NCBI GenBank assembly: GCA_050273025.1
Contig: CP158635.1
Coordinates: 7,130,001-7,194,000 of the forward strand
Length of the DNA stretch: 64,000 nucleotides
Direction of reading: 5' to 3'
DNA from: Cenococcum geophilum
Lineage: Eukaryota
The notes below the pieces were generated by a model. The model saw nothing but the letters and a program-made list of their open reading frames with translations, was not told where the DNA came from and did no database searches. Shown here piece after piece: positions 2,584 through 49,600 of the stretch. Every line of letters begins with the position of its first letter. Within the stretch, counting starts at the first letter, position 1. The position numbers and the translations under genes were made by a program.

Positions 2584-2854
2584 TATTATTATTATTAGTT
2601 CTATTTATTGCCCAATTCGGTCCCTTTTCAGGTCCATGTAGGCTACTACCTATCTATATAGGAAAAAAATCCCCTTAAGGGGGAAAAACCTAAGTATTTC
2701 CTTGCCGCTAGTAATACGCGTTCCGCCTTCGCCTAGCTAGTATATCTTTGTGTCTTTTGTCTGCCTTGCGTACCATACTTCCTAGGTATATCGGAAGATC
2801 TAGGGGGAGGGAGTGGTAGGAGGGTCTGGCGATTCGCCAGTGTGCCGCCTATGG

Positions 2855-3274
2855 CTAGGCGGGGGGTGACCAGTCTCTAAGGGGCTGGAGGGGGGCGTGT
2901 CCTATAGTGTCCTCCTGTTGGATCTTATGTGCAGTTTAGAACTGCTGGAGGACTCCTTATCCTATAAGCCATTTTGCTACTACTTGTAGGCCTCTGCTTA
3001 TAAAGAGCATCCAGTTAATATCATTTGTGCCTACGCTAGCGAGTAGCTAGTCCCTTGCTGAGCGGTGGCTGCAAAATAGTAGTATATAGCGTACTGTCTG
3101 AGCGGGCCATCCGCATATGCACTGAGGTGTGGTACTTAGGACATAGACGCCCGCGAGCCATGCGTTTAGGCCTAGGACCTCCGTCCGTAGTAGGAAGGCG
3201 GCTATAGACTCCGCTTTCGTTAGTCCTTCGTATAGGGGGAGAGTTGGTATTAACTATGGGGTGTTCCATGTGGC
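2855..3274 (-). pseudogene. C-terminal zinc-knuckle segment of Tad1-like LINE ORF2
   Basis: LYEGLTKAESIAAFLLRTEVLGLNAWLAGV...PQCICGWPAQTVRYILLFC...VAKWLIG*GVLQQF (CxCGxxxQTxxHxLxxC motif). Confidence 0.85.
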
Positions 3275-3562
3275 TAGAATACATTTGCATTGCAGAGCTA
3301 CGAGAGTTATATACAAAGTAGAGTTGCGGAGGCCCTCTTGCCCGGGCCCTCTACTATAGTTTTCCACTTCGGACGCCCCTTGACGTCTGTCTACTTCCAC
3401 AGCAGCCAGCCAGCTAAAACTAGCCACTGCCTATGTGTACCTGATTTGCTCCATAAGCCTATCCTTACAGCCTACTCTACCTAGATAAACCGACACGCAC
3501 GTCCGTCCTTTTAGGCTATACAGACAGTGTCGTCGATAAGGTGTTAATCCTTCCTCCGAGAT

Positions 3563-3776
3563 AGGTCCACCAGGAGTCAGAGCCTAGTAAAGGGGTGAGG
3601 TTCCTAGAGTCGTCCGTCACTGCCATTGTATACCACGCCCCACAGCCGTTACCAGCTGCTTCGCGTTACCTGTGACGCTCTCGCGACAATAGGCCGACCG
3701 TGTCTTGCAGGCGTGGGCCCATAATAACTCGACACCGCACAGCTATCGTCCCTCAGCCGCCTACTAACCAAACTTG
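3563..3776 (-). ncRNA. Candidate structured RNA motif, copy B
   Basis: Diverged repeat of 4623-4835 with conserved single-stranded blocks and compensatory stem changes (see findings). Confidence 0.55.
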
Positions 3777-3832
3777 TTGTCCTCCTATCTTAACCAACAC
3801 CTGCATCTAGGTCCGTTCCAGCCTACCTATAC

Positions 3833-3985
3833 AGGTTCGTCCTAGCTCTTTCTTAGTCCGTTCCGGATTAACGTCGCCGCCTAGAGAAAGGTTAACGCCG
3901 CTACGTTTATAGGTTCGTCCTAGCTCTTTCTTAGTCCGTTCTAGATTAACGTCACCGCCTAGAGAAAGGTTAACGCCGCTGCGTA
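3833..3985. repeat. Tandem duplication, 78-bp unit x2
   Basis: aggttcgtcctagctctttcttagtccgttc...agagaaaggttaacgccgct occurs at 3833 and 3911. Confidence 0.9.
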
Positions 3986-4622
3986 GAAAGGGCAGGTAGT
4001 TATATATTAGCTAATAATATAGTAGAGTTCAACATGCCTACTTATCTAGGCCTCTACCCCAGTTTTCTAGTACTTTAGTCCTAGTCTACAAGCAGTTAGC
4101 TGCTACCACCTAATACGGGGATTCTCACCAGTTCTTTCAGATATCTTATAACGGGATTAGCCCGAGTACTAGTCCGCCCCCCCGTGGTCTATATAAGAGT
4201 TTCCTCCTAGAGTTAGTACGCTTTCGCACGGCTTAAGAGCCTTCTATAGCCTCTAGTTTTACGCTTCTCTTTATTATTTCCGCCAGCACGGGCATAAGCT
4301 GCCATTTGCAGGGGTCGCAACTCCCATTTTACGCGCCTATTGGCGTAGTCCTACAAGGGCGTCGTGGCTGCATCCTGTAATGTAGCTAGGTATACCTTCT
4401 ACGGTTAAGGCTTAGCCAAAACCTCTCCCGCCTAAGTAACTCCTGTTTGCTCCTTAAGCGTACCTTACTAGCGTACTACCCTAGTGAGCAGCCGTACTGC
4501 CCTAGCGAGCAGCCGTACTGCCCTAGCGAGTAGTCCTATCTATTGGTACACCAACACGCGCATCCGTTCTCTCGAGCTACGTAGTAGTCTCTTTAGCTAG
4601 GACGTAATCCTATCTACCTACC

Positions 4623-4835
4623 AGGTACACTAGGGGTTAGAGCCTAGCTAAGGGGTAAGGTCCCTAGAGCCAGCAGTAGCTATTATATACTACGCCCCGC
4701 GGGCCTTTTAGTTCCCGTTTCGCGTTACCTATAAAAGTCTCCTTATAATAGGCCGACCGTGTCTTATAGGAGGGGGCCATAGACTAGGTCCCGTGCTAGG
4801 CGACCTGTTCCCCCCTCTCCTACTAACTAAGCTTG
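4623..4835 (-). ncRNA. Candidate structured RNA motif, copy A
   Basis: Diverged repeat of 3563-3776 with covarying stems. Confidence 0.55.
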
Positions 4836-5647
4836 TGTCCCCCCTTTTTATAAGCTGGCCTGTGTCTTTAACTGTTAAGGACCTCGTCCGACTGGCCTGT
4901 GTTTCCTTAGAGCCTCCCCCATATATATACGCGTTAGGTTGCGTGCACCACGCCTATTAAGACCCTCCTGTGAGTCGCCTGGTCGAACGCCATGGGGCCG
5001 TCGAAGCTGGCCTGTGTTTCCGCTGCCTAGAGCTTTGCCCGTGTTTCCACCTCGTCGAGCCATCTGGTCGCCGTCGCGTCGCCGTCGCGTCGCTGTCGCG
5101 TCTGTCGTCTAGGTCGCGCGCACCACGCCTATTAAGACCCTCTTCTGAGTCACCTAAGTGTTGGGTAGTACCAGATAGGCCCTTGTAGAGGGGCCTTAAT
5201 GAGTTTTCTAGGCAGGGCCTTAATAAGTTCTTCGCGGTGGCCTTGGGGCCTTAATAAGTTTCGTACGAGGTGCCTATAACGCGTTAACCTTAACAAGTTC
5301 TTATAAAAGGAGGTTCCCTACACCCTTGCCGCATCCCTTTGCGATCTTAGAGCTAGTGCAAGCCTAAGGGTGTCCTGTTGTACGCCTAGGGCGCGTCTAC
5401 GTCGACTGGCTATGATAAGACCAGTTTCGGGCCTGGCTACGAGCCAGGTAGTCGTACATCGGGTGGTTTTCGTATCCCAGTTTCCCTTGATAGGCCTCCC
5501 TAGGTGGTAGAGCAGGAGCCTTAAGCGGAGGCAGTAAGGCTCCTGGTGTTGTTGAGGGCGATGCTTTGGTACGCGTCGCGGGCTCAACACCACAGAACCG
5601 CGACGACAGCGCGTTGCATGCGCTGCGACGGCTCCCTACCATCGCCT

Positions 5648-5732
5648 CTGCACTTAGCCATCAAAAGGAACGAATTCCTGATGATGTTTCCACCCGCGGC
5701 GACGTGGACGCGTGCAGTAGGGCTTCGCGGGC
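5648..5732 (-). ncRNA. HDV-like self-cleaving ribozyme
   Basis: Minus strand: P1 GCCCGCG/CGCGGGU (G1-U wobble), J1/2 AAGCCCUA, P2 CUGCAC/GUGCAG, P3 GCG/CGC, L3 UCCACGU, P1.1 CC/GG, P4 CAUCA..AGGAA-UUCG-UUCCU..UGAUG, J4/2 GCUAA with the catalytic C. G1 is the first base of the element. Confidence 0.93.
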
Positions 5733-7200
5733 TACCGCCTCTATCTATGTAAAGAACATAAGTACTAGCTATAGGTGGAATAAATTAAAAGTTAGATGTT
5801 TTTTAAGGTACCCTATAAAATAAGTAAAAAGAAATCCGCAGTCGAAGACCTTCTTAGGTATTCTTATTAGACAGTAAAAGCAAGATTTATAGCTCTTAAA
5901 CAGCGCGAATTATAGCTAAAAATACTTAAGTCGTTAATAATATATAAGTAAGGCACTCTCTATAGCGGGCTATAATACCATTTTTATAAATAAGGCTTCT
6001 ATTTCCTCTTAAACGGCTAAAATAAATTTTTATTGCACATCTTTATAGATAGTATAATTAAAAATCGCGTTTCTGTAAGTATCTGCGAAAAGCGCATTAA
6101 AAATAAGCAATAGGAGGAAATCTACGCCGATTAGCTGAATAGTTAATTAGTATATTATACGACTCTTATAATAAAATCCTGGCGTATAACTTACTAGTAA
6201 TAAAGCAGAAGCAGTTAAAGGTACTACAAAATGCCATAGCTACGCCTGGCTTGGCATTTTACTAATTAATTCTTATAGATACTTTTAAAATTCTTACGCG
6301 GTAAATCCTTAAGGATAAGATAACTAAATAAAATAGAAAAAGGACTTATCTAAGTAAAATTGGTCTATTATAATTGTAGAAAGCGCCTTAAAATAGCGCA
6401 TATTAAAGAGAAATCTGTTATATTAGTAGGCCTATATAGCCTTAGTAAAGACTAAAAGAAGGCGTTTATGTAATACGAAGGAACGGACACTATAACTCCA
6501 TTTCTAATTTAATCTAAGGACTTAAATGCTATAGAAATGGGCACCTAAGTTTTTTTTAATTTTATTTTCCCGTTCGTATTCCTTAATACTTTTTATAACT
6601 ATTCTTATATTAGTTTAGAGCTTAGCCTCCGTAATAGACGGGTTAAATATAATAGATAAAGTATTAAGAACTATAAGTATATAAGGAAGAGTAGATTAAG
6701 GGAGGTTATATAGTAGAGGCTTAGTAGCTTAGTATACTAAATGCTTTAATATACCGTAAAGCCCGCTTAGGTTAGAAGCAAAATAATATATAATATTTAA
6801 AAGAGGAGCAAGGATATAAGCAGAAAGAGAATTTATAATTTCTTTCGCTAAGCAATGGCCTAATTGCAACTATTTAATCTATCTTACTATTTTATACCCA
6901 TTTTATAGGCTAGGTGCAAAATCTAATAAACTGTAATTATAGATCTTAGAGTTAATGTATATTAAAGGGCTATTATCTCTTTATATCTTTAAATTACTTT
7001 AAAGGTAGACCTAATAGTAGGAGCTTATTAAAGATAGATTGTTCTTCCTACTAAGGATTTGCCTAAGGAGCTTAGATTTAGTTTGTCTACCAATTAATAT
7101 AATAAAGGAAGGAGTTACGTTAGGCTTTAACAAAAGAAACCTAAAAGTATAACAATAAACTCTTAGTACGCTCTTACTCCTTATATAGGTAATCCTTATC
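5733..7200 (-). pseudogene. Patatin-like phospholipase, 5' part
   Basis: Reads ...FYLFYRVP*KTSNF*FIPPIASTYVLYIDRGG (CxxC...PPTAGxRVLxIDGGG) into the TSD. The upstream N-terminal region includes PSFIILIGRQTKSKLLRQIL. The start is approximate. Confidence 0.75.
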
Positions 7201-8553: not shown

Positions 8554-10043
8554 TAATATTAAAGGATAGATAAAGATTAACCTAAAGGTAGTCTAGCTTT
8601 AGTATATAGATTAATTAGCAGGTCTATAGTTCTTAATAATATAATAAATATAAAATTCTATAGATTAGCTAACCCTTCTTCCCGCTAATTAATGCAATTA
8701 TTTCCTATATGCCTTAAGTAGATACTAGAAATGGTAAATTATACTAAACACTATCTATAAATAGGTTTATATCTCTATCTTATTAAATCCGGTCTTTTAA
8801 ATCTAGGCCTTTATAAAGCTAACGCTTTCTAGCTTTCCCCTCTATATAGTAGGCTTTAGGGGATAGGCTTTGTCGACGACACAAACCTAATTACATACGG
8901 GCCAACAGCCGCAGAAAATTGCAGAATACTAGAGAAAGCTTATAACACCTGTATAGAATGGGCAAGACGACATAGAGTCCAATTCTCACTAGAGAAATAC
9001 CAGCTAATCTACTTTATAAGAAAACGCAACCAATCTATAGATCTTTAGTATATAATCCGCATTTAAGGCTTTAGGGGTTAACCAGTTTAGGGTCTAAGGG
9101 TATTAGAAGTATAGGTAGACAGCAAGCTCCGGTGGAGCGCATATACAATATAAGCGGCCTATAAGGGCCAAGCACAGTACATCACATTATCCAGGATTGT
9201 TAATTCTATATAGGGTCCATGCTTCTAGAGGTCACGCCTACTATATATAGCAGTTGTCCGGCCAACCATAACATATAGGTCCAGTATTTAGGCCATTAGA
9301 GAATCTAAGAAAGGCCCCCCTAAATCGCTCCTTAAACTACTCTAAAAGGTCTAAATAGCCTGCCTTTAGAGTATAACAGGCGGATATAAGCAAACAGCCA
9401 CAGCACTGCTTAAAAAGGAAGCCAATATTCCCCCCCTATAACTATATATTAAAGCCGCTGTAATATAAAGGGCGCAAAATAAACGTAACTCTAATGTTAT
9501 AAAGTATATTAAGACACGCCTAAATAAACTATAGAGGGACCCTAGGGCGCCCTATAGGAGAATAAACCAACAACCCTAAAGTAGGGAAGATATATTAGAG
9601 AAATAGGTAAAGAAAGTAAAAGAAGAATAGTGCTGCTTTAGGGCCCAGGCCTATATAGAGAAGGAAGGGAGACGTATAAGAGGCTAGTAAAGATAATAGT
9701 AAGAGAGAGAAAGGAGCAAAAGTAGAGTATAAAAGAATGCTAGGAAACTATCTACCGCAATATAATACTGGCTGGACTAACGCTAGAGAGGTATATAGGA
9801 GTTAAAGGTACAGAGGCTAACTAAGGCAAGAGGAACCTAAGCCGTAGCATAGTTAACGCTATAGGGGGTAAATACTTTAGGGCTCCAAGAAGGCCTAACG
9901 AAGGCAGAAAATATAATGGTAATACTCTTAAGAATAGGAATAATAGGACTAAAAGACTGGCTCTACTGGGTAGGTGTCCTAGTAGGTAGCCTGAGATGCG
10001 AATGTAGCTAGCTAAGATAGACACCAAAATACGTAATACTGTT

Positions 10044-11476
10044 TTTTTTTTTTTTTTTTATATCCGTTGTATTATACTATGTACAATACTGCGCATGCAG
10101 CCTCTAGGCTATGGCGCTATAGTTCTATATACATGAATCCTTTCTAGGCAGCTTAATATGTACTAGTAGCTAAGTAGACACTCTGGCCCGTTTTTAAAAT
10201 GCTAGGGGAGCTCTAGCGACTGGTGTTTTTTCGTTCTGGTATTTTGCTTACTATGGTCCAGTTCACACCAAGAAAACTAAGGAAATCCTGGCTCTTTTAT
10301 CTATTTCTGCCGTATTCTGCCGTTCCTAGAGTAGAAAAAGCGCTCTAAAAGAATGATTTTTATTAAATAGTTTTGCACTTAAGAATAAGAGGCGTTACAA
10401 TAGCTTGCTAGCTTGGAAGCAGCTACTAATTACCCCTAAAGCGACTTTTTATCCTGTACCCTATCTCTTCTCCTTGCTAAAGAAATGGGTAGGGAATTAG
10501 TAATTAATAGCTACTCTCCCCAAAAGTAGGCTATTAATGGTATTTTATAAGGGCGAACCTCGTTACATAAACCTACTCCCATAGGAAAATTTTCACGAGG
10601 TTGTCTGTATAGGGTATAAACACCAATTCGCCTATACACCTTATATTTAACGTGCTAATGGTAACACGGGCCGGCCCCCTTCCCCTATCCCCATAGCTAC
10701 CCTAGCAGTGCATCGTCTGCGGTACGCCTACGGTGCGCCTACGGTACGCCTGCGGTCCTCTATAGTTTGATTGCCTATAGCGCGACAGCCGTAGACCGGT
10801 TGTAGTAGAGGTCGTCTACAGTATAACGGCTGTAGACTGGTTGTAGAAGGTCGTCTGCTCTGCAGCAGACTGGTTGTAGAGGAGGTCGTCTGCCCTACGG
10901 CAGACTGGTTGTAGAGGAGGTTGTCTGCCCTGCGGCAGACAGTTGTAGAGGAGGTCGTCTACCCTGCGGCAGACTGGTTGTAGAGGAGGTTGTCTGCCCT
11001 GCGGCAGACAGTTATAGAGGAGGTCGTCTACCCTGCGGCAGACTGGTTGTAGAGGAGGTCGTCTGCCCTGCGGCAGACTGGTTGTAGAGGAGGTCGTCTG
11101 CCCTGCGGCAGACTGGTTGTAGAGGAGGTCGTCTGCCCTGCGGCAGACTGGTTGTAGAGGAGGTCGTCTGCCCTGCGGCAGACTGGTTGTAGAGGAGGTC
11201 GTCTGCCCTGCGGCAGACAGTTGTAGAGGAGGTCGTCTGCCCTGCGGCAGACAGTTGTAGAGGGGGTCGTCTGCTCTGCGGCAGACTGGTTGTAGAGGAG
11301 GTCGTCTGCTCTGTGGCAGACTGGTTGTAGAGGAGGTCGTCTGCTCTGTGGCAGACTGGTTGTGGTGGAATCGTTGGTTGTGGTAGCTAGCGTCGTGGTG
11401 ACGTGTCTTTAGGGGGTATACAAACGGCGGCGCCCTAGCGACGACGGACGGAGGAGCAAAGGGGAGGCGACGGACC
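10044..11476 (-). mobile_element. Non-autonomous SINE-like retroelement with hairpin array, nested in LINE
   Basis: Poly(A) tail (T-run 10042-10059) and 13-bp TSD acgtaatactgtt at 10031-10043 and 11477-11489. The 3'-terminal ~110 bp match the 3' end of the LINE derivative at ~29848-29950. Confidence 0.85.
10795..11362. repeat. 35-bp tandem array (~16 units), each with a 7-bp stem hairpin
   Basis: Unit ggttgtagaggaggtcgtctgccctgcggcagact, containing the inverted repeat gtctgcc-ctgc-ggcagac. Confidence 0.95.
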
Positions 11477-18856: not shown

Positions 18857-21329
18857 TTTTTATCCTTAGATCTAGTTTATCAGGTCTTAAGCACTCGTTA
18901 CTACTAAGCTGCGATGGCAGAAGATTGATACCTTACTATAGGCTGCATAAAGGGTTACTACACCCGTGCTAAATCATATCTTACTGCTCTATATTTGACG
19001 CCTTACCACAGGCCGCATTAAGGGTTACCACACCTGCGTACAAAGTCATTCCTTATTATCAAAATTACGCGTTAAAATCGTTTATTTACGCGTTAAATTA
19101 ATTTATTTACGCGTTGCTATGGGTAAAGACTATCCAGGTATTTAACGCCTTAAGAAAGACGGTTTAAATTAGACCTAATATTGGACGCAGCTTAGCACGT
19201 ACCTACGTGGTAAGGGCCTTCTGTATATTATTTGGGAAGATATAGGCCCACCCCTCTACCTAAAGCTCTAGGAAGAAAAACCTACGATATTTATTAATTA
19301 AGTACCAAAGGACGCTAATAAGGAGAAGCGAGACGAGATTCTTAAGAGGTCTTAAATTATTACGGATACTAATAATTTAATTCGCTTAACTAATAAGGCA
19401 TTCTCCGATAAGTACGATAAGGAGTTTAAATAGTATAGCAAGGAAGACGGCAAAGTCTGTTTAGTTATCCTTGGTACAATTAACAATAAGATTATTACTG
19501 CCTTAGAGCACAAGCAGTCGGCAAAGGACTACATTAATTACCTTAAGCAGTTGTTTAAGGCCTATGGCTTAATCTATAAGCTAACGTATAGGAGACTTTT
19601 GTTAAGCTCCGCTATTAATTAGACTAAGTAATTACTACTTTCTTAAGCCGTTATTAAGAAGCGGTTTAAGGGGTTAAGTAGGTAAAGCTTGTCCTAGATA
19701 ACAAGATCATTAACTATTAATTTATTAACGCCGTCGACGAATACTTCCCTATATAGGCTTAAATCTAATATAATAAGATTCGCGACGGCCATACGATCTT
19801 ACTACTTTAATTAATTGCTAACCTTACTAACGAAGCTCAACAGAAGGACCCAGCTAATAGCTTCGCCTTATTTAATTAGGAGCAGCCTAGTTAAGGACGC
19901 GGTAATAGTCGCGGCAGAGGTTAAGGAGCTAGCCGCCCTAACGACTGTAGTGCCTTATTAGGCGATTAGAGCCCTGCCAAGGATGCCCTAAATAGGTGTA
20001 GATAGTGTAAGAAAAGGCATTAAGGTGGCGAGGACTACTGCTAGATAAAGTATACCTACCTAAGGCCCGACTAGTGGAGACCTAGCAAACGCTCTAGTAG
20101 TAGAGGTAATTAAAACAAAGTAGCCTTAAATACGAATAAGGCCTCTAGGGGGATATCCAATCGCCTATTTTAAGCTACTAATTCGGTAACCAGATTGATC
20201 TTTGCTATATAGGTTATTAGGCTAGTAGCTATAGCTTTAGGAATAAATATTAAGGACTCCTAAATAGCTAACAGTTGCTTAAATATTTATATATGCAACG
20301 ATATTAGGAGGTTTGTATAGTATAAGGAAATTAAACCTCTCTAAATCCAGATAGGAGGAGGCCTAATAAAGGCAATTGGTATTAGATTAGTCGAGCTTAC
20401 AATTACCCGAACTAACCACTCGGCCTATATAATTACATTTACTAAAGTATATTACTGTCCTAACTTCTTTATAAATATTATCTCGCTCAGTATTCTACGG
20501 GGGAAGGGAGCCTTCTTTAACGGTCTCTATAATACAATTAACCTCGTTAAAGATTAGGTAGAAATAGCCTACACCCTATACATTAACGGCCTTAATTTGT
20601 TTATACTGATAGACAACCCTATAGAGGTTTCTTTCGCAATAGCTCTAGCTACCGAACGACCGCGTCTCTATAAGGAACTTCCTACTAAGGACACTATACT
20701 AAAGGTCTCTCAGGCCTCGCAGTCGGGGGGTGCTTCTGGCGATCACGATATCGCACCACGGCCCGATCAATCTTCACTCACTAACAACAAACCATGCAGT
20801 AAGCCAGCCTTAGACATTATTAAAAGATCGCAGGAGACAGAAGAGGTCTCTCGGTCACTGCAGGAAGGAGACAAGGCTTCTCCGTCACCGCAGGAGGAAG
20901 GCAAGGTCTCTCAGGCCTTGCAGTCAGGGGGTGCTGCAGGCAATCACGATATCGCACCGCAGCCTAATCAACCTCCCCTCACCGACGACGAACTAAGCTA
21001 TAGGCCAGTCGTAGACAATATCAAAAGATTTTAAAAGGTAGATAAGGTCTCTAGGGCCTCACTATTAGGGGGTAACTCTTAGTTAAGGGGTGCTTCTGGC
21101 GATCACGATATTACACTATAGCTTAATCGACCTCCCCTTACTAATAAAGAATAGGTAGGTTTTAACTAGCAAGAGCTTCCTAATCTAGGAGGACACCTCT
21201 ATTAGGACGAGACTTCCTTAAGGGATATCTACTAGGACGAGGCTGAGCCTAGGTTAACCTAGGCCTCTTATAATATAAGCGGAAGAGTTAATACACGTAA
21301 TATAGCGAATACGCGTACGCGATTAAAGC

Positions 21330-24300
21330 TGTAATGGGACTAGCCCAGTTACAGTAGGAATGTCTCGGTGAAACACTTGATAGATAAATTCCGACGCTTT
21401 AACCAAAATCTGCTAGATCAATCGAATTACTAAAGTCCGTTAAAGACCGCGTACGTATGTGCGCACACATCGACCACCAAGCCCCTAACTATTTAATTAT
21501 ATGATTCTCTTGTTATTCCTTTCTCTTCTTTACGCAACGTCTTGTTCTTAGCAAGAGCTATATACCCTTAGATTTAGATAGAATTTATATCGTTCCTTTA
21601 AATCTTCCTAAAGTCTCTCCGCGCCCTTATATTACGTTGCATTAATACTAATACCCTTAAAATGGTAAACGAACTTAAATCCGCTATATTAACTATTATA
21701 GCCCTAGTTAGGGAATAAATAACTATAATATAACAGTCCTTTATAGATGCCTTAGCCCAGCAATAAACTATACTAGAAGCTTAATATTAGTAATTAATTA
21801 AAGCAATATATAAAGAACTCCATGACGCTAAAGTACTTACGTTAGAGACCCTAATAGTAACACCTATAAATAAAATCGAAATAACTATATACGAACCTAA
21901 TCTATTAAATATAAACCCCAAATTAGTAACGGCAGCTTAACCTATACCTATAACGAACCCGGTACCTACCACGAAATTTAAAAAGCTCCCTAACCCTCTA
22001 ATATTTAATAGAAATTAAAATAACCTACGTCCCTTTATAACTAAGCTCCGTTTTAAACTTTTAATAAACTATAACTAATACCCTACTAAAGCCAGCAAGA
22101 TTAGCTATAGAATATCCCGTTTAAATAAAGACGCTATATAAACTATAGACCCATTCTTCTATAATAGCACTTTTATTAATTTCAAAATTTTTATTTCTTT
22201 ACTAGAATAAACGTATAATAACGCCAGCCGTGAATACACAGCTATTACTAAACTTAAAAACCTATAATAACGGAACCAAGACTTCACTAACTTCTTTTCG
22301 GAATTTTTAGGCCTTATTGGTAAACTAGATTAGAATAAAGCCGCTAGAGTTACTGCTTTCTGCTAAGCTATTTTAGATAAAATTAGAGTATAGTTAGTAG
22401 GCAGAGAACTGCCAAAGGACTTACCCGAATTTGCTATAATATATTAACGAATTAATAAGAACCTTTAATATAATAAATAAACTCGTTCCCTAAAGCCAAC
22501 TATACCTTACGCTTAAAACTCTATAAAACTAGTATATACCCTAAAGCGCGATCCGTCTCTAAGACCTAAAAGCCCTACGTATAACCTTATGGACCTCAAT
22601 GCCACCCAATCCTATGCACCCTTAGGAACTAATAAATAAAGAATATAAGCCGCAAATAGAGAATGTTTTAGATATGGAAAAAAGGGATATATTTAAAGGG
22701 ATTGCTAAACTCACCCTTTTAAAAAGGTCTACTGTAGCTCCTCTTAGTCCTTAAGTTATACTCGTTCTATAAATTATACTTAGTCGCTATAAAGCATTTT
22801 ACCTTTAGTTAACTTAGAAAACAAATCGTCTTAGGGCTAAGTCGCGCCTTAGAATAAGAAGTAGAAGAGTATAAGTGTCTAGGCTCTTCTAGCGCTAATA
22901 CACGACACGACTCCCTTAATATACTTAGCGAAATTCAAATACTTAAAAAATAAAAGGAAGTACGAATCCTTATAGACAGCGGAGCTACTAGTATGGGCTT
23001 TATCGATATAAACTACGCAAAAACTTAACACTTAAATTTAAAGAAACTTAATAAGCCTTAAGGCCTATAAGGCTTTAATAGCAAGCCTTTAATATATAGT
23101 AAACTAATGTACTACGCTCTTATAAAGATATGGATAGGCGAACACCTTAAATATGTTTCCCTATTTATAATACCCTTAAAGTATTATAAGGTAATACTTA
23201 GATATAGATAGCTAAAACAATACAACCCTTTAATTAGCTAGGTTAAAGAAACACTAAAATTCCGTACAACCTACTGCCGAAGTTATTACTTAAAATACTA
23301 CTTGCCCTATAAACATATACACAACTATTTAAATTTAACACGATATAAATTGCCCTTACTATAAACCTTAAACTAATATAATAAAGTTATAACCGCTAAT
23401 CGCGGTAAGGAATGCGAAGATAATATATTAAAACCTCTTAAAATTCATATAATACAAGCCGCACCCTTTTATTCGTTAGTAAGAAAATAAGACTATAAGA
23501 TCTTTGCTATAACACTAAAAGATATTAAGAAGGCGTTGGAACTGAAGTAATATATTAACCCCCGACCTCTTATACCTAAAGAACATCACAATTTAATTAA
23601 TACGTTTAAGAGATAATTTATAAACCAACTACCCCCGTATTAAGATAAGCACGATTTTAAGATAGAACTTAAACCTAGTATAACGCTAAAGTTCGGCCCG
23701 TTATACGGTATGTCGTGAGAAGAGCTACTTATAATGTAATAATACCTCGAAGAGCACCTAAAGAAAGGATTTATTCGCCCTAGTTAATCACTATTTGCCT
23801 CGCCTATACTATTCGTTAAGAAACCTAGAGGAGGCTTAAGATTTTATATTAATTATCGAGCCCTAAATGCGATCACGGTTTAAAACCAATATCCAATTCC
23901 CCTACTTTAAGAAATGCTTAACTACTTAGCGAAAGCATAATACTTTACAAAGCTCGACGTAGTTGCTACCTTTAATTAAATCCGTATTTGCGAAGGAGAT
24001 AAGAAGTATACGGCTTTCTGTACATAATGGGGACTTTTTAAATACCTAGTAATGCCGTTTAGCGTAAAGAACGGTCCTGGTATATTTTAGTAATATATTA
24101 ACGATACATTTCGTGAATTTCTTAATGTATTTGTTACTGCGTATATTAATAATATCTTAATCTATTTATCTTCGCTTTTTAAATATTAGAAGTATATTTA
24201 AATAGTCCTTAAACGCCTGCGAGACGCGGGCTTATAATGCGATATTAAGAAATGCAAGTTCTATACGTCCGAAGTTACGTACTTAGGCTTAATTATATCC

Positions 24301-27285
24301 CGTAATGGAATTAAAATGGATCCTAAGAAAATCGCTATAATTATAAACTAGGAAAGTCCTAGTAGTATATAAGATATCTAAGGATTTCTAGGATTTGCAA
24401 ATTTCTACCGTTAATTTATTAATTACTTTTTAAAAATTATTTAGCTATTAATAAACTTAATAAGGAAGAACATAAGATTTAAATAGACTATTAAATGCGA
24501 ATAAGCTTTCAACAACCTAAAATATCGTTTTACGACTGCTCCAATCCTTGCCTACTTTAATCTAGACCTTAAATGTATCGTTAAAACAGACTCATCTAAT
24601 TATATACTAGGAGGGGTGTTATTGCAGTATAATAAGAACGGCAAGCTACGCCTAGTAGCCTTTCTCTCCCAGAAACTTACCCCTACTAAATTAAACTATG
24701 AGATATATAATAAGGAACTGCTTATAATTATTAGATACTTTAAATAATAGCGTCCAGAACTTAAAGGATTATTATTCCTAATACGCGTATTAATGGACTA
24801 TAAAAACCTGCAGTACTTTATAACTACGAAGCAATTAATACAGCGCTAAATTTATTAGGCTGAATACCTTTTATAATTTGACTTTAAGATTATATATTAA
24901 CCTGGCAAACTTAACTAAAAGCCTAACTTATTAATATAACAATTATAGGATTTACCTATAAACGCCTCTAACGAACGGATTACAAATTAATTACAAATTC
25001 TACTGCCCCCTAAACGCTTTAAGAAACTACGCCCTATATTCCTAGACGCGGAGCTTAATAGGAATAAATTAGAAATCGATAAGTGGGATATAGAAGTTGA
25101 TAAATTAATAGAACACGAATATAAGAATAACCCCTAGATAGTAGATATAATAAAAGCAATTTAAATAGGGAAACGGCAATATAAGGATATTACACTCGCT
25201 AAATGCGAAATCCGCAATAATCGGTTATACTATTAACAGAAGATGGTAGTCCCAAATTCCGAACCCTTACGATTTAAGATACTCGAATTCGTACACAATT
25301 CCCCTATAGTAGGGCATCCTAGTTATATAAAGACCTATAAGATTATCCAACAAGCATACTACTGGCCTATAATGTACAACTATATATAAAAATACGTCCG
25401 AGTATGTAGAATGTGCGTGCGTGGGAAGACCTCTTATATAAAGAAGTAAGGAGTACTTTAACCGTTGCTAATTCCAATATAAAGATGGCGAGATATCTTA
25501 ATTGACTTTGTAGTTAACCTACCTAACAGTAATAGGTTTACGAATGTTATAATAGTTATTAACCGTCTTATAAAAATGCGATATATAATTCCTATAGACT
25601 TAATTAATACAATATTAGTAGCCGAATGTTTTATTAAGCACGTCTTTAAGCTATATAGACTTCCTAATTTAATAATATCCAACTATAGAAGCCAGTTCGT
25701 TTTAGACTTCTAGTAAGCCCTATATAAATAATTAAGTATATAAACACGACTCTTAACTGCATTTTATCCGGAGACAGATAGTTAAACTAAAATTACAAAT
25801 GCGATTATAGAATAATACCTATAAATATACTGCTCCTACCTACAAGACGACTGGGAGAAATGGCTACTATTAGCTAAGTTTATTGCGAATAATACGAGAA
25901 ACAAATTAATAGGTATGACGCCGTTCTACGCAACCTATAGATAAGACCCTTAACTTAGATTTAAACTATAACCCGAAATTAATATAATAGGACCCATAAT
26001 TAAGAGGATTTAACTAATTAACGTATATAACTTTGCCGATTGAATAAAGCAGTTAACGGAACTATTACGAAGTAAATTAGCGTACGCTTAAATGGTATAG
26101 GAATAGTATACAAATAAAGGACGAGCTCCCGCGTAGGACTTTAAGGAAGGTAATATAGTTTACCTAAATACACGAAACCTAAAGACTTAACAACCTTTAA
26201 AGAAACTAGACTGGAAGTTTACGGGTCCGTACTAAGTTAAAAAGAAACTAAGCCTATACGCTTATAAACTTAAACTACTAACTAAGATAAAAATACATCT
26301 AACGTTTTACGTAAACTTGCTATAACCCTTAAAGGGTAAACCTATAACTCGCGAAGTACCACTACTATCTCCCATAATTATTAATAATGGCAATAGTTCT
26401 TACTTTATTAACTTAATTAATAATATATAATAGAAGATACAATCTAAATAATTTAAACTTCTTATTAAATAGGAAGGATACGAAATACAAATATGGGAAA
26501 CCTATAACTAGATTAAGACCAATACGCCTTCCCTAGTAAAAGAATTCCATAAGGACTATCCTTCGCGGCCTACTCTGGCTAGATAGATATAACATAAAAG
26601 TAAATAATTGCCACCCGACATAAATACACAAAACACGATAGTAGGAAGCTCGAAATTAAAAAAGACTTAAAATTCGTTATAATATTCGTAACACGATCAC
26701 GTAACACGTAAGATATTAAGGAACTTTAACCGCCGGTTAAAGTTGTCTAATTGGTTAGACCTGCCTTGCCAAGACCTACTATAAAGATATTAGTTCTGCT
26801 TACCGCCTTAACTAAGCTAATAGCGATTTTCTATCCTAGGGATAGAAAATCCTAATTAGTCCATTTAACGATAGAATTAGTAAAACCCTATACCGCCACC
26901 TAACGCGAAAACACGACACGCAATAAGTTATAAGTCTTAACTAAAATTAAATTATTTGGACCTTTGGCTAAAAGGGGGGGTACTATAACGGGACTAGCCC
27001 AGTTATAGTAGGAATGTCTCGGTGAAACACTTAATAGATAAATTCTGACGCTTTAACTAAAATCTGCCAGATTAATTAAATTACCGAAGTCCGTCGAAGA
27101 CTGCGTGCGTATATGCGCACGCATTAACCACCAAGCCCCTAACTATTTAATTATATAATTCTCTTATTATTCCTTTCTCTTCTTTACGCAACGTCTTGTT
27201 CTTAGCGAGAGCTATATACCCTTAGATTTAGATAGAATTTATATCGTTCCTTCGAATCTTCCTGAAGTCTCTCCGCGCCCTTATA
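21330..27285 (+). mobile_element. Full-length Ty3/Gypsy chromovirus D (RIP-inactivated)
   Basis: 302-bp LTRs 21330-21631 and 26984-27285, TSD AAAGC and PPT aaaaggggggg. Contains gag, protease LIDSGA, RT (FTKLDV, YINNILIY), RNaseH, integrase (GPY) and chromodomain. Confidence 0.95.
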
Positions 27286-43602: not shown

Positions 43603-46600
43603 TATTACGGACGCTTTAAGTACGATATTACGACTACTTAGAGAAGAGACGGAAGAAGCTAGTTAGTTAATTTAGGCACGGTCTAGAATAGAGCCGATAG
43701 AACTATGTAATAAGGAATGGTAACTAAGGTTATATAATGTGCTATGTATTAAACAAAAGGAACGAGAGGAACTTACGTACCTTATATATAAGACGTATAT
43801 TATATATAAGAAGGATTTTATAGAAGTACGGTTATATATTTAAGGACCCTTAGTCCCTACCTAGATAGTTCCTTCTTTATAGTAATTCTTAGAATATAAT
43901 TAGAGTTAATCTATTAGGCAACTACTCTACCAGTTATTATTACGTTGTTAACTTTTATACTTGCATTTCCTATACACCTAGCCTAATAATAAGCCCACCG
44001 TAGTTCTTGCTATAAGATTCCATTACATAATTACTACCTAGTTACGGTATTAATATAAGAAGTTAAATAACATGCTACTAAAAGCAGCCACTATAACGCT
44101 ATTGACGGCAGCAACTACTTTAGGGATAGGAGGTGATACTAGTATGGCGGATACTAACTTATAGCAACCTGTGACGGTCGGATAGCTATAGGAAATAGTT
44201 AACTAGCTAACAGCTAATAATATAGTATTAGAAGAAAGACTTAATGGGATAGGAGTAGTAAAGATTAAGTTACTATTAATTAAGAGATTTATAGGAGAGA
44301 GGTTAAAGCTTAAAGGATTCCTTATATAGATGCATTTTAAGGTCTTATAGGAGGGAGTAAAGTTACCTATATTTGTGGATTGGATAGCCTATATAGGACT
44401 ATTCTTATTAGGAAAAGTACTTAAGTAGTTTAAATCTTACCTTACGGAGATATAGGCAAATAGAATGACGACCACTAACTAAGACATATAATTTATGTTC
44501 TTAAGTTAGGAAGGATTTATAGAATAACTAACGCAGATATTTAGAGACCCGGAAGAAACAACTATAGTAAAAAGAAAACTCTAGAATCTTGTATAATAAA
44601 CTTTAGCAATTAAGTATATAATATAGTTCTAGATACTAGTAATATAAGTAGAGTAGAATAATAGGGCGTTTATAGTATAGTATAAATAGGGACTTAAGGC
44701 TAAAGTCTAGGACGTAATTATCCTAATAGAAGATGCGGATACCCTAAGGGAACTAATAAATTAGGCGATTAAGATTAATAATTAGATCTACTAAAGGGAA
44801 TAGGCTAAGAAAGGCTAGGATAGAGTTCTATAGTTATATAAGGCGTAAAGTACGTAACGATAAAAGCTAAGTTAGAAACTATAGTATGGCGTAGAGCTAA
44901 TAGACCTAAGTGGTACTAAAAAAGCCTATAAGAAATAGAGTAAACTATAAAAACCTAGAGGATAAGGATTAAGTAATTAAAGGTCTAAAAAGCAGAGGCT
45001 GAATTAGGGATCTTAATAGCAGAAGACATTTAGGTGGACTCTATAGTAAGAGAAATAGTTTAAAGAAGGAGCTTGTATAAATTACGGAAAATAGGGTTAT
45101 TATATTAGAGACTATAGAAGTAGGTAAAGTTACTATATAGTAAAAGGTATAAGACTAGTAGATAATATATACGTATAAAGGGACGATAATATACTACGAG
45201 GAATAAAAGAGTGTTTAATTAGAAGTTTTGCGTTTTATTATAATAACGTATACCAAATTTATAAGGATGCTAAGTATGGCGTAAGCTATTAGCTATAAGA
45301 GCTAGCACCTATAGGATATAGAGGAACTAACGAACTAGTTTATAGATTAGATATTAAGGATAATAAATTTAACCTAGGCGAAATATTTTATAACGATGAG
45401 GTAATAAGGGCTGCTTATTAGGAGTGAGTAGATCTTAGAGATATTATACTAGAGGTAGAGAATAATTCTATTATAGAATAAGGAACATTAGTAGGGATCG
45501 AAACCCTACTAGATATAATGTCTATCACTTTATAAGATATAAGAGAAGTAGGATAGTAAACTACTTTGGCACTTAATAAAGGCAAAAGGCTAAAGGCTTA
45601 AGATTTTTATAGCGAGATAAGAGATAACTAAGATTTTTAAGATAAGATAAGGTAAGCTTAAGGACCTATAACGGACAGAAACTAATGGAGTAGAGTAGTA
45701 GCTTAGTTTAAAGACATACGAATAAGCTTGGGATAAGAATTTCTAATAGTATAAGATTCTTAAAACGAGATAAGTGAGATTTAAGACTCTTAAGATAAGA
45801 TAAGAACACTAAGTAAGCCTAGTTAGATTAAGGCTGGAGCTAAGCTTAAATCAGAAGTAAGCTTAGGATTAAAGAACCTAAGGGGTTAAGAATTCGGAGT
45901 ATAAATTAGGACACCTATAGATAAGAGGTAAGGGGCTTCTTTATAGATTAGAGAATCTGCGGCATAAATAGTAATTAGATTAGGAGATAAATATATAAAC
46001 CTAGAGGATTTACTAGTTAAATAAAGTGTTTAGACTAAAGATTGAAAAACCGATATTAGGATTAAGAAGTAAGATAACTTTAAGGATTAGAGCGTGAGGC
46101 GTAAACCAAAAGAAACTATAGAAGAGTTTAGGCAAAGAATTATTGTATAGCAAGAACAGAAACTAGATAAGAGATCTAGTATATTAAGACGTATAAAGGA
46201 TAGAGTATTAGTATAAAGAATTACTAATAGGCTAAGAGTAGGTATACTAAGAGCTAAGTGGCTTATTAAACTAGAAGATAAAGAGGATCTAGGGATTCTA
46301 ACTAGGTTTAAGGAACGATATATAAAGGGCTATTATAATATAGTAATAAGAAGATACTTCCTTATGGATAGACCGTATATACTCTAGCAGCTATACTAAA
46401 AGTAGTATAGGCAAAGGCATAATAATAAGTAGGAAGATTTCTATATATAGTTAGATAAAAAAGTTATTTAGGACCACCTAATTATAGAAAAGGCTATAAC
46501 GCATATTAAAGGAGCCTTAATTATAACGTTAAAGGATTTAAAGGAACGTTTAGAGGACTAGAGAAGTAAAAGACGTATCTTAGTACCTACAAATAAAGTT

Positions 46601-49600
46601 ATAACGTTTAGATTAATATAATAAAGGTTTAAACTTAGGGATAAAGATGAGCTAAGAGTTAACCTAAAGCACCTAGCATACTATACGATATTATGGATTG
46701 CGTATATAGACGATATATACAAAATGTATAAGAATTTAAAAGAGAAGAATCGGAAATACCCTATAAGGATATACTAGATAATAGACGAGTAATAGTATAG
46801 GAATGCCAAATATATATATAGATGGCATCCAATAGAAATCTAAGAGGAAGGAAGTTTAGTACTTTAACTAAAAAGATTCCTTACGGAAGAATACTTAGAT
46901 GGATAATAGTAGTAGGAATGCCTAGAAAATATATGTCTATAGTATATAGAAGATAAAAAGCGAACTAGGTATTAGCTAAAGAGTAAGCTAAGTGCACTAG
47001 GATTAAGTAGCTAATAGTTAGGAAAAGTAGAGGCCTATAGGACTAGAGGGAGCCAGTAGTAGAGCCTTAAACCCTTAAAGGAATTTAAGGACGATACCTA
47101 AATTTACGGATTAATTAGTAAGATTAGCAGTTTAAAGCACTAATAGATAGTAGAGTAACGCGAAACTATATCTTACTAGTAGTAGTTAAGAGAATAGGGC
47201 TACCTTATAGACAAAAGGAGCAACCTTACCTATTAGTTATAATTTTAGGAGATCTAATAACCTATAGAGGAGGGATCATTAATCTTAAAATAGGACCTAT
47301 TTAGATAACTATTAAAGGAAGATAAATTAAGATATCTTTTAATATCCTACTATTAGAACGGGACGAGGCAGTATTAAGTATGCCTTAGTTATAGAAATAT
47401 AATTTAAGAATTAATTAGAATATAGGTTAGGTTAATATTAAAGATACTTAATACTATAAGATGCGATAATAAGCTAAGTTAGTATAGTACTAAGTAGGAG
47501 CAACCTACAAAGAAATAGAAAAAGGACTAAGCTATATACCAAAAAGATACTATAAGTATAGTAAGAAACTATAGTCACCAAAGAGTAAAAAGCTATTAAA
47601 ATATATAGTATAGGACTATAAAATAGAGTTAGAACTAGGAACAAGTCTAAAGTTTTTTCTAATCTACAAGCTTACTAAAGAAAAGAGTAGAGCGTTAAAA
47701 GAGTTTGTCTAGGAAAATCTATAAAAGGGATATATTAGACCATCGCAGTTATTAGCGGGTTATCTAGTACTATTTATACTAAAGAAGAATAGCAAACTAA
47801 GGCTATATATTAACTATAAATAGTTAAACAGCATTACTAGAAAGGATAAGTATCCTTTACCCTTAATTAGCGAAATCTAAAATAGGATAGGTAATACGCA
47901 AATCTTTACGAAGATAGATCTAAGATAGGCGTACTATTAGATTAGGATTAAGGAAGGCGATAAATAAAAGGCAGCCTTTAGGTTAAAAGAAGGACTATAT
48001 AAACTATTAGTTATACAATTCAGGCTTATAAACGCACTAGCAACGTTCTAGAAGCGTATTAACAATATATTAAGAGAATACTTAGATAAATTTATTATAG
48101 TATATCTTAATAATATTATTATCTACTTAATAACTAAGGAAGAATATGGGGAACACGTTAAATGGGTCTTAAAGAGACTATAAAAAGAATAGATGCTAGT
48201 AGCAATTAAGAAATACGAGTTCTTTACTAAAAAGACCGATTTTGTTAGATTTATTATTAAACTAAGCTAACTTAGTATAGATCTAAAAAAGATTAAGGCT
48301 ATAGTAAATTGGCAGGAATTAGAGAACGTTATATAGTTAAGATTATTCCTAGGGTTTTATAATTACTATAGAAGGTTTATAGCGCAATGGTTAAAGGATA
48401 TTAAGCTATTTACGCAGTTAATAAAGAAAGAAGAACTATAGGCATAGGGGGAAGAGTAAAGAGAACTCTTTAAAAAAGTTAAAAAGTTGTTCACCTAAGA
48501 GCTAGTTCTTAAGATCTATTAACTAGGACTAGAGACGGTTATAGAAATAGATGCATTAAACTATGCACTAGGGGTATACTTTATATAAAGGCATTAAAAT
48601 GGATAGCACCTAGTGGTATACTATAGTCGGAAGATAATACTACTAGAGTTAAACTATAACATCTATAATAAGGAGTTATTAGGTATAGTTATAGTATTAA
48701 AGGAATAGAGAGCATTCTTATAAGGTATAGAGAAACTATTTATAGTTAAAACGGATTATAAGAACTTAATAGAATTCCTAATAATAAAGGAACTTAACTA
48801 AAGATAGGTTAGATGGGTAGAGATACTTACGGAATACTATTTTAAAATTTAGTATACCAAAGGTATAGATAATACGCGGGTAGATGCTTTAAGCCATAAA
48901 GCTAAACTACAAAATAAGGAAAAGCTATTAGGGGCTTTATTACAAAAAGATACAGACGGATTAATTAGGTATAATTATCCGAAAATTGTAGTAACTTAAG
49001 AAGATAATAAACTAAAGAAAGTCTACGAGATACTAGAAAGCTTTTAGGCGTAAAGAATTCTAAAAGTATAGCTAAAAGATCTATAGATAGATATATATAA
49101 AAATTAAGAAGTGAAGTATATCCTAAAAAGTATAGTAGAGTAATTTGTAGAGGACTTCTATAAGGGACTAACCTAAGGACATAATAGAGCTACGGGCTTA
49201 GTGTTAAGACTTTAGGAGGAGTACATTATTAATAGAATTTAGAGGATAGCTAGAAAGGTTATAAAAGAATATCTAGATTACTAAAGGAACAAACCGACAA
49301 GGCATAAGCTATATGGAGGGCTATAACCTATTAAAATACCAGAGAGACCATAGGAGGTCATATTATAGGACTTTATTATTAAGTTGCTAAAATTAAAAGA
49401 TCCTATTACTGGATAAGATTATAATGCGATCTTAGTAATAATAGATAAGCTTATAAAGTGGGGATACTTTATAGTATATATAGAAGAAATCTTAGCGGAA
49501 GATATTACTAGAATCTATGTTAAAGAAGTATTTATAAAATATAGAGTACTAAGTAAGATTATATTGGATAGAGATCTAAGATTTATAGCAATATTTTGGG

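Follow-up and report, generated by a model that had tools for sequence, protein, structure and literature searches.

Two diverged copies of a covarying RNA core in a repeat-rich stretch of Cenococcum geophilum, and their probable place at the head of chimeric retrotransposon copies

Layout of the window and of the two core copies

We analysed a 64,000-nucleotide stretch of Cenococcum geophilum DNA (contig CP158635.1, positions 7,130,001 to 7,194,000; hereafter the window), in which two direct copies of a structured RNA motif had been predicted on the minus strand, at 4623-4835 (copy A) and 3563-3776 (copy B). The G+C content of the window is 28-50%, and every 4-kb block bears the marks of repeat-induced point mutation (RIP), with TpA/ApT at 1.45-1.83 and (CpA+TpG)/(ApC+GpT) at 0.34-0.70. 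ARAGORN found no tRNA gene in the window, no open reading frame (ORF) longer than 220 amino acids occurs in it under genetic code 11 or code 4, and a Pfam run on 120 stop-free segments of at least 55 amino acids returned no domain in 3000-5800 and only retrotransposon debris elsewhere. From this composition, and from relatives of the long interspersed nuclear element (LINE) protein described below, we infer that the window is a gene-free, repeat-derived piece of nuclear DNA from a filamentous ascomycete; a mitochondrial origin was rejected, with no tRNA and no long ORF found under code 4. The region around the two copies (3300-5300) is a high-copy repeat to which 4428 contig pieces from one public DNA run align. 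T>C and A>G account for most of the differences that separate it from these other copies, and the window copy is therefore the RIP-mutated one.

Both copies were recovered at the predicted places by MAFFT, blastn, nhmmer, and a covariance model, and they are diverged, with 80% column identity across ~340 nt in the MAFFT alignment and 72% identity across 159 nt by blastn. Neither nhmmer nor the covariance model detected a third copy in the 64 kb. The strings that had been put forward as conserved linkers are the same letters in both copies, well above chance; the 19-mer AAGACACGGTCGGCCTATT occurs twice in the window against 0.00 expected, and AGGTAACGCGAA and ACCCCTTNNCTAGGCTCT each have two exact matches. 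The GAGA loop said to be kept in copies A and B is present in both. However, the claimed extent of ~213 nt proved too short, as family-wide conservation spans about 430-500 nt. The motif is the 5′ part of a larger conserved core in a non-coding module and not a free-standing 213-nt RNA.

The module is about 1-1.7 kb long, contains no ORF or Pfam domain, and consists of a subfamily-specific leader, a universal structured core (about 450-500 nt), and a fixed 3′ end. Family-wide conservation begins sharply at TTTGGTTAGT, which is present in 120 of the 123 extracted copies, and is followed on the 3′ side by the invariant strands GCAAGACACGGTCGGCCT, AGGTAACGCGAA, GGGGCGTGGTATATAATGGCAGCGAC, GACACTGTCTATATAGCCCGAGAGGACGGATGCGCGTGTCGGTCTA, and ATAGGCTTAAGGAGCAAAC; in most lineages, the core ends at a fixed point ~365-431 nt past GACACGG. 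The leader upstream of TTTGGTTAGT is conserved within a subfamily only and is built of 175-nt units in subfamily A and 78-nt units in subfamily B. Histograms of the ends of pairwise high-scoring segments were too blurred by divergence to define boundaries.

The window element is a three-part minus-strand chimera comprising module A, a truncated module B, and a LINE 3′ piece; copies A and B are the cores of two subfamilies joined in this one chimera. Module A, of subfamily A, is present at full length (3991..5732, minus strand) with leader, core, and 3′ domain. Ten loci have its 5′ boundary in common, at -967 to -970 relative to the start of the core, and 3 more have it within 30 nt of this position, with no homology upstream; the 3′ end of module A (...AACTACCTGCC) is a block common to type-A copies, after which the sequences are unrelated. 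The leader of module A (4839..5732, minus strand) contains ~175-nt tandem sub-repeats, which are putative promoter monomers (direct repeat D7, 4935-4980 / 5110-5155, 89% identity). The 5′ half of its conserved core, with helices P1-P3, lies at 4690..4832 on the minus strand (covariance model R1 (CM R1), full model, 133.5 bits, E 5.6e-38). The 3′ domain of module A carries a ~320-nt insertion (4072..4390, minus strand) that is absent in other copies; contigs of three runs jump from 4071/4072 to 4390-4398, and locus L006 (extracted loci carry L numbers) is without the stretch. Directly abutting the 3′ end of module A is module B (3274..3990, minus strand), which is 5′-truncated within its leader; type-B homology begins at -287, which is the junction, and the module ends in ...AATGTATTCTAG at +431. 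What is left of the module B leader includes two 78-nt tandem units (3823..3978, minus strand; repeat D3, 92% identity), and GACGTTAATC-type units also stand upstream of the type-B cores in L106, L024, and L077. The 5′ half of the copy B core occupies 3633..3773 on the minus strand (CM R1, 135.6 bits, E 1.3e-38), and its 3′ half, at 3274..3641 on the same strand, comprises an optional insert, the GGACGGATGCGCGTGTCGG block, the GGCTTATGGAGCAAAT block, and a terminal helix, as judged by the alignment (A6) and the terminal-helix test given below. Behind module B follows a RIP-degraded LINE 3′ part (2587..3273, minus strand; the end of ORF2 and the 3′ region), assigned by blastn to two loci: window positions 3263-2587 match L050 at +1956..+2625, collinear behind the ORF2 matches of L050, and positions 3121-2587 match the sequence directly after the module in L074.

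Raw RNA reads from a relative cover 3970-5300 and have the first mate almost only on the plus strand, which under the usual stranded protocol indicates minus-strand RNA, that is, the motif strand. These reads peak in the leader of module A, where joints reveal copies with other repeat numbers, and they continue past 3992 into other sequence. We also noted that the short motifs ACACGGGCAAAGC and ACACAGGCCAGC recur in the leaders of L009, L092, L105, and L112 and in window positions 4860-5080; the leaders bearing them belong to otherwise unalignable subfamilies, and the motifs are candidate repeated promoter sites for protein binding.

Covariation in the core

An exact two-block pattern taken from the two copies matched at least 121 loci in public metagenome contigs, with 17 contig-name prefixes among the 80 matches listed. 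Many of the loci are RIP-like, with 32-45% G+C; others have 50-60% G+C and are therefore little mutated. In the hairpin between the two pattern blocks, the GAGA loop is kept while the stem varies (CGC/GCG, GAG/CTC, GGAGG/CCTCC, GGGC/GCCC, AAGA/TCTT, and others). CM R1, built from an RNAalifold alignment of 25 diverse 5′-half sequences, matched 111 times in 100 sources. In L021 and L039, a member that has diverged strongly and is rich in G+C (61%) scores 81.6 bits over the 5′ half of the core, but its middle part, before a GGACAGTACGCGCGTGTCGG-like block, is different and much longer; the family therefore extends beyond the reach of the exact-pattern scan. Further, two or three cores lie on the same strand within a few kb in L012 (479-616, 2831-2968, and 3976-4113), L068, L040, L064, L017, L061, L054, and L029, and L016 has a second core on the opposite strand. 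Chimeras or arrays with several modules thus seem to be common and not specific to the window.

In the 5′ half of the core, RNAalifold gave 35 pairs for the 25 sequences, 20 of them with compensatory changes. The predicted helices are an AGGAG/CTCCT stem closing a variable hairpin, a GAGA hairpin stacked on GCCT../..AGGT, and a third hairpin closed by the invariant ACGC/GCGT. In the CM alignment (109 distinct rows), standard pairs fill 95.0% of the cells, compared with 81.1 ± 0.4% after column shuffling (none of 500 shuffles reached the observed value) and 33.8-45.7% when the 3′ partners were slid by 1-3 columns. Changes on both sides occur at 23 of the 35 pairs, and the covariation score is 0.436, compared with 0.195 for shuffled and at most 0.105 for slid controls. 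At 4 positions G-U is the commonest pair, which fits the minus (motif) strand only and points to RNA. The predicted covariation of the stems between the two copies is likewise borne out by the comparison of A with B: of the 35 pairs, 18 are identical, 11 are changed on both sides and still paired (6 of them by transversions), 4 are changed on one side and still paired, and 2 are broken in one copy. Because RIP could mimic G-C to A-T double changes, the two partners of a palindrome sharing the CpA context, we examined the 49 sequences with at least 57% G+C, and transversion-type swaps were found at 13 of the 35 pairs.

For the 3′ half of the core, RNAalifold on 12 sequences (alignment A6) gave 54 pairs, 24 with compensatory changes; single-sequence minimum-free-energy folds of this half were mutually inconsistent and were not used. 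At the very end of the module, the last bases (..CCUG) pair with a CAGG just after the invariant GGAGCAAAC block, and the inner part of this terminal helix varies by lineage (GACGG/CCGUC, AGUUA/UAACU, ACAU/AUGU). The mean longest ungapped run of the terminal helix is 5.96, compared with 4.75 ± 0.15 for shuffled arms and 4.20 when the DNA just downstream is used. Throughout the core, invariant junction strands alternate with covarying helices. Overall, the conclusion that the core fold is a selected RNA structure, as originally proposed, is strongly supported, because covariation is present across the 111 homologues, the swaps include transversions that RIP cannot make, and the G-U pairs fit one strand.

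The pseudoknot that formed part of the original prediction found no such support. Its helix GGGGCGTGGT/ACCTCACCCC has zero compensatory changes in 86 carriers, G>A changes that nothing compensates in 28 of them and in 33, and 2 constant mismatches. Its 3′ arm, together with the proposed linker CTAGGCTCT, sits in an optional insert of ~70-80 nt that is absent in 15 of the 98 measurable members; CTAGGCTCT is thus the same in both copies of the window, as claimed, but is not universal. The AGGA/TCCT versus AGGG/CCCT pairing is real and maintained, one of its pairs being AT in 57, GC in 26, and AC in 3 members, but what it makes up is simply a hairpin stem. With GGGGCGTGGT/ACCTCACCCC uncompensated and AGGA/TCCT an ordinary hairpin stem, we consider the pseudoknot unsupported.

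In line with the original prediction, which left the structure unassigned, Rfam offered no family for the motif. A search of the window with gathering scores as the cut-off was negative, and at E≤10 nothing was found in 3000-5500 except a chance match to the L31 leader outside the motif. Nor is the motif a protein-coding repeat by Pfam. Of the outcomes that had been named as refuting the prediction (a lack of covariation, a known Rfam family, or a protein-coding repeat), none occurred. A junction had been likened to that of group I introns, in the absence of a canonical core; the missing core was confirmed, as the Rfam group I models found no P3-P7 core, and the resemblance is unsupported, with no Rfam match up to E≤10. 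A group I intron was also rejected on the grounds that the module is kept in more than 100 retrotransposed copies and is then followed by unrelated sequences, and is not removed between exons. The families of small self-cleaving ribozymes gave no Rfam match, although the Rfam models miss many folds of the hepatitis delta virus (HDV) type. A short interspersed nuclear element (SINE) with a tRNA, 7SL, or 5S head was rejected as well, with 0 genes by ARAGORN and no 5S, 7SL, or tRNA match in Rfam. The options left by the original prediction (a ribozyme, an element like an internal ribosome entry site, or a packaging element) are narrowed by the LINE-module context described next, which does not decide among them.

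Junctions with LINEs and the origin of the chimeras

The sequences that follow the module repeatedly encode LINE proteins. In L069 and L072, ORFs on the motif strand that begin 326-372 nt after GACACGG contain the beginning of an RVT_1 domain. Directly behind the module in L009 comes the C-terminal half of a reverse transcriptase (RT) with RNase H and a CCHC region, as read from the translation, and the closest full-length relative of this ORF, P0001, has 1274 amino acids, is 87% identical, and is annotated with RVT_1 and an endonuclease domain. With P0001, a full APE-RT-RNase H ORF2, as the tblastn query against 75 oriented sources (E≤1e-4), LINE ORF2 was found downstream of the module in 21 of the 75 sources and on the same strand in all 21; it was found upstream in 2, namely L017 (opposite strand) and L073 (same strand). 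A placement of the motif in the LINE 3′ untranslated region (UTR) of tandem LINE arrays was rejected, as only one of the 75 sources (L073) has the end of a same-strand ORF2 upstream.

The two sides of the junctions differ. On the module side, the joint is constant (...TGTAT(T/C)CTGG in type B). On the LINE side, ORF2 is entered within ~130 nt of the module end at amino acid 1 (L046), 35 (L015), 311, 413-423, 455, 466, 507, or 764, and further downstream elsewhere; what follows the module in L063 and L049 resembles the extreme C-terminal region of ORF2, as read by eye from the alignment. A recognisable 3′ end with at least 80 nt behind it is present in 59 of the 75 modules, and the next 200 nt fall into 51 unrelated classes, 45 of them singletons. 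All 7 junctions for which longer LINE copies allowed a comparison are precise and show neither filler bases nor visible microhomology, and the LINE bases before them end in AGA, AAT, ATA, AGA, ACA, AAT, and AGT. Splicing from a donor at the module end was rejected because these bases are not AG, and a polyadenylated acceptor because there are no A-runs at the joints. Further, type-B modules that form one cluster at ≥85% identity stand on LINE lineages whose proteins are only ~32% identical (L069 versus L072); module and ORF2 therefore do not diverge together as would be expected of a LINE and its own 5′ UTR, a comparison that covers these two lineages. Modules are also joined to modules, in the window (B cut in the leader) and in L080 (B cut inside the core).

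This architecture recalls the MINE elements of Magnaporthe. In the original report on them, the full-length, 1.1-kb, non-coding WEIRD sequence is fused to the LINE MGL at 28 different truncation sites, and the authors attribute this to template switching by the LINE reverse transcriptase (PMC2104539). The same report mentions one tripartite WEIRD-MgSINE-MGL element, no solo copy of WEIRD, and no similar sequence in other genomes, and gives EF585235-EF585237 as accessions of MINE transcripts (PMC2104539; Gogvadze et al. 2007). MINE and the chimeras analysed here share a non-coding 5′ part of ~1 kb with constant ends and no known gene, a LINE 3′ part in the same orientation truncated at many points, tripartite forms, and transcription. 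Both hallmarks of such chimeras were found among our loci, that is, a full-length non-coding 5′ part with constant ends and a 5′-truncated LINE 3′ part with a variable start and the same orientation (21 of 21 sources; 7 junctions). In contrast to WEIRD as described there, the module is present in several diverged subfamilies within one genome and in many metagenomes and has a conserved covarying secondary structure, of which no mention was made for WEIRD, and the GCC motif reported before MINE junctions does not precede the 7 junctions analysed here. Three published WEIRD/MINE primers (PMC3978060) matched neither the window nor any of the at least 121 loci with up to 4 mismatches, which excludes close similarity at the primer sites only.

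Taken together, these results make it very probable that the motif is the structured core of a 5′ module to which truncated LINEs are joined, and not an orphan pair of ribozyme-like genes. The fuller account that we favour, as on balance probable, is that a non-coding 5′ module with diverged subfamilies, two of which have their cores in copies A and B, heads LINE chimeras in RIP-affected filamentous fungi and is placed there by template switching. In such a mechanism, a LINE reverse transcriptase copying the RNA of a LINE or of an older chimera would move over to a discrete module RNA, entering it at the 3′ end and copying it as far as the 5′ end. The new copy would thereby acquire the module leader, a probable promoter, and the chimera could be transcribed again. 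The fold may have been selected for stability of the module RNA, for a defined 3′ end, or for closeness to the LINE ribonucleoprotein. The chimera in the window would be the product of two such switches, giving module A, the truncated B, and the LINE 3′ part. For the template-switch, promoter, and docking steps taken together, we regard the chances as about even; promoter activity of the leader and binding to LINE proteins are pure inference.

Several observations weigh against this account. No LINE protein match at E≤1e-4 was found in 52 of the 75 sources, presumably owing to RIP decay. A discrete module RNA with the 3′ end of the module was not seen among the relative's reads, which do not pile up at 3991 or 3274 at a depth of at most ~15. 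The absence of the GCC motif, in LINE copies that are RIP-mutated, also counts here. The 95.0% of paired cells comes from an alignment fitted to the structure, which inflates this percentage, and the slid controls share the bias only partly. Finally, in L046 a near-complete ORF2 begins 134 nt after the module end, and the module could thus be the 5′ UTR of that LINE.

The last point leads to an explanation that we consider unlikely but still credible, namely that the module is generally the LINEs' own 5′ UTR, made of promoter monomers and a structured leader serving, for example, translation or ribonucleoprotein assembly, and that internal deletions gave rise to the short, non-autonomous forms, in which the 5′ UTR and the 3′ end are kept. 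The consistent strand of the downstream ORF2 (21 of 21) would be expected, as would the entry at amino acid 1 in L046 and at amino acid 35, right at the module end, in L015; the sub-repeats of the leader also recall the monomers of the mouse L1 5′ UTR. However, near-identical type-B modules on such distant LINE lineages argue against it, and so does the module-side breakpoint, which is always at the same base while the LINE side is variable (at least 7 junctions, 51 classes), because random deletions would vary both sides. The module-to-module joints in the window and in L080 are also unlike a simple UTR.

It is quite improbable that the module contains a catalytic RNA that cuts at its own 3′ boundary or, in a group-I-like reverse reaction, joins its 3′ end to LINE RNAs before reverse transcription. 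In its favour, the core (~450-500 nt) has the conservation pattern of a large ribozyme, its covarying helices being linked by invariant strands of 10-45 nt at the junctions; the 3′ boundary is base-exact, closes a helix, and has all determinants on its upstream side; and the joints are precise and without filler bases. Against this, no ribozyme or intron in Rfam matched up to E≤10, no catalytic-core motif was identified, RNA reads cross the boundary into downstream sequence, and the LINE bases before the junction have no consensus that would suggest guide pairing. A wider proposal, which we rate as rather improbable, is that the core is a large ribozyme or ribozyme-like 5′ parasite or partner of fungal LINEs that would set its own 3′ end, attach itself to LINE RNAs or cDNAs, and give promoter-less truncated copies a new transcription start, with WEIRD as a diverged member of a widespread family.

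Site-specific insertion, in which the module would be part of another repeated element and LINEs would insert by target-primed reverse transcription exactly at its 3′ end, with their variably truncated 5′ ends next to it, appears highly improbable. A fixed upstream partner, variable LINE truncation, and one orientation would fit it, as seen for R2 in 28S rDNA. However, both in the window and in L080 the piece inserted after module A is itself a truncated module B, which makes the module a part of the RNA that was reverse-transcribed; further, one target would have to serve two very different LINE lineages, and the 59 copies with a recognisable 3′ end have no common following class that could be the empty target. 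Finally, the notion that there is no selected structure, only a neutral duplicate in which RIP on both strands of palindromes (CpA context) made the compensatory changes, is suggested by the heavily RIP-like window, its mostly T>C and A>G differences from other copies, and the 5 of 11 A-B double changes that are transition pairs, but is clearly rejected by the other 6, which as transversion pairs are impossible for RIP, by the 13 pairs with transversion swaps in G+C-rich sequences, by the excess of paired cells (95% versus 34-46% when slid), and by the rarity of half-changed intermediates (e.g. AC in 3 members beside AT in 57 and GC in 26).

Other systems offer partial parallels to the structured module. 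In the U6 snRNA-L1 chimeric retropseudogenes of mammals, the 3′ end of full-length U6 is fused to a variably 5′-truncated LINE, which is attributed to template switching. There too a structured RNA is joined by its 3′ end to a variably truncated LINE, but U6 is a housekeeping RNA of one sequence type, whereas the module has no known cellular role, bears a repeat-containing leader, occurs in several lineages, and resembles a mobile element. The 5′ protein-binding pseudoknot RNA of R2 and the HDV-like ribozymes of R2 and L1Tc are structured 5′ RNAs for processing or protein binding, and HDV-like ribozymes are shorter than 200 nt and cleave at their own 5′ side. These RNAs belong to and co-evolve with one LINE lineage; in contrast, the module fold is ~450-500 nt long, stands on unrelated lineages, and has its exact boundary on the 3′ side. 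SINEs are copied via a 3′ tail that mimics the LINE 3′ end and have a head derived from tRNA, 7SL, or 5S. Like them, the module would be a non-coding, non-autonomous passenger of LINE reverse transcription joined to LINE-derived sequence; unlike them, it has no known head, sits 5′, and is followed by a LINE part whose length varies per copy.

No published text was found to contain the three motif strings that we searched for, and no such fold came up in the search listings for later WEIRD/MINE work or for conserved structures in fungal non-LTR (long terminal repeat) UTRs. A fungal structured-RNA screen left out transposable elements on purpose (PMC8216456). For the architecture of the chimeras there is a precedent in one species; what appears to be new is the fold, with its breadth, its subfamilies, and its exact 3′ end closed by a helix. 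Since 2005-2007, MINE and WEIRD have been a single-species oddity, an abundant non-coding RNA of unknown function seen only when fused to a LINE. With a module of MINE-like architecture that is widespread, occurs in co-existing lineages, and has a large, strongly selected fold, the question moves away from template switching that happens by accident on some RNA and towards an RNA that may be built for being picked up, and the covariance model, the defined 5′ and 3′ ends, and the named invariant strands make this question testable. It bears on how 5′-truncated LINEs may regain transcription and on how the repeat-rich, RIP-affected compartments of fungal genomes build up. If the core were a catalytic or otherwise active RNA, its importance would be considerably greater.

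Other features of the window

Remnants of a Ty3/gypsy-type LTR retrotransposon lie at 20345-24744 on the plus strand (Pol_BBD at 20345-20554; RT_RNaseH_2 at 24505-24744, E 3.6e-24). A RIP-degraded non-LTR RT fragment is present at 8839-9438, also on the plus strand (blastx, 27-29% identity to LINE ORF2, E ~1e-11; weak RVT_1 at 8860-9045); it is on the strand opposite to the chimera and has no relation to the module copies. An array at 10788-11369, which begins about 1.4 kb past this fragment on the downstream side, consists of 16 or more tandem units (34-35 nt, GCGGCAGACTGGTTGTAGAGGAGGTCGTCT-like) and yields a spurious minus-strand ORF of 220 amino acids; its position suggests a possible 3′ tail repeat of a LINE. 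Finally, we noted that positions 44001-50000 have a GC skew of +0.29 to +0.34 and an AT skew of +0.17 to +0.22 at 28-31% G+C, an asymmetry much above that of the rest of the window.

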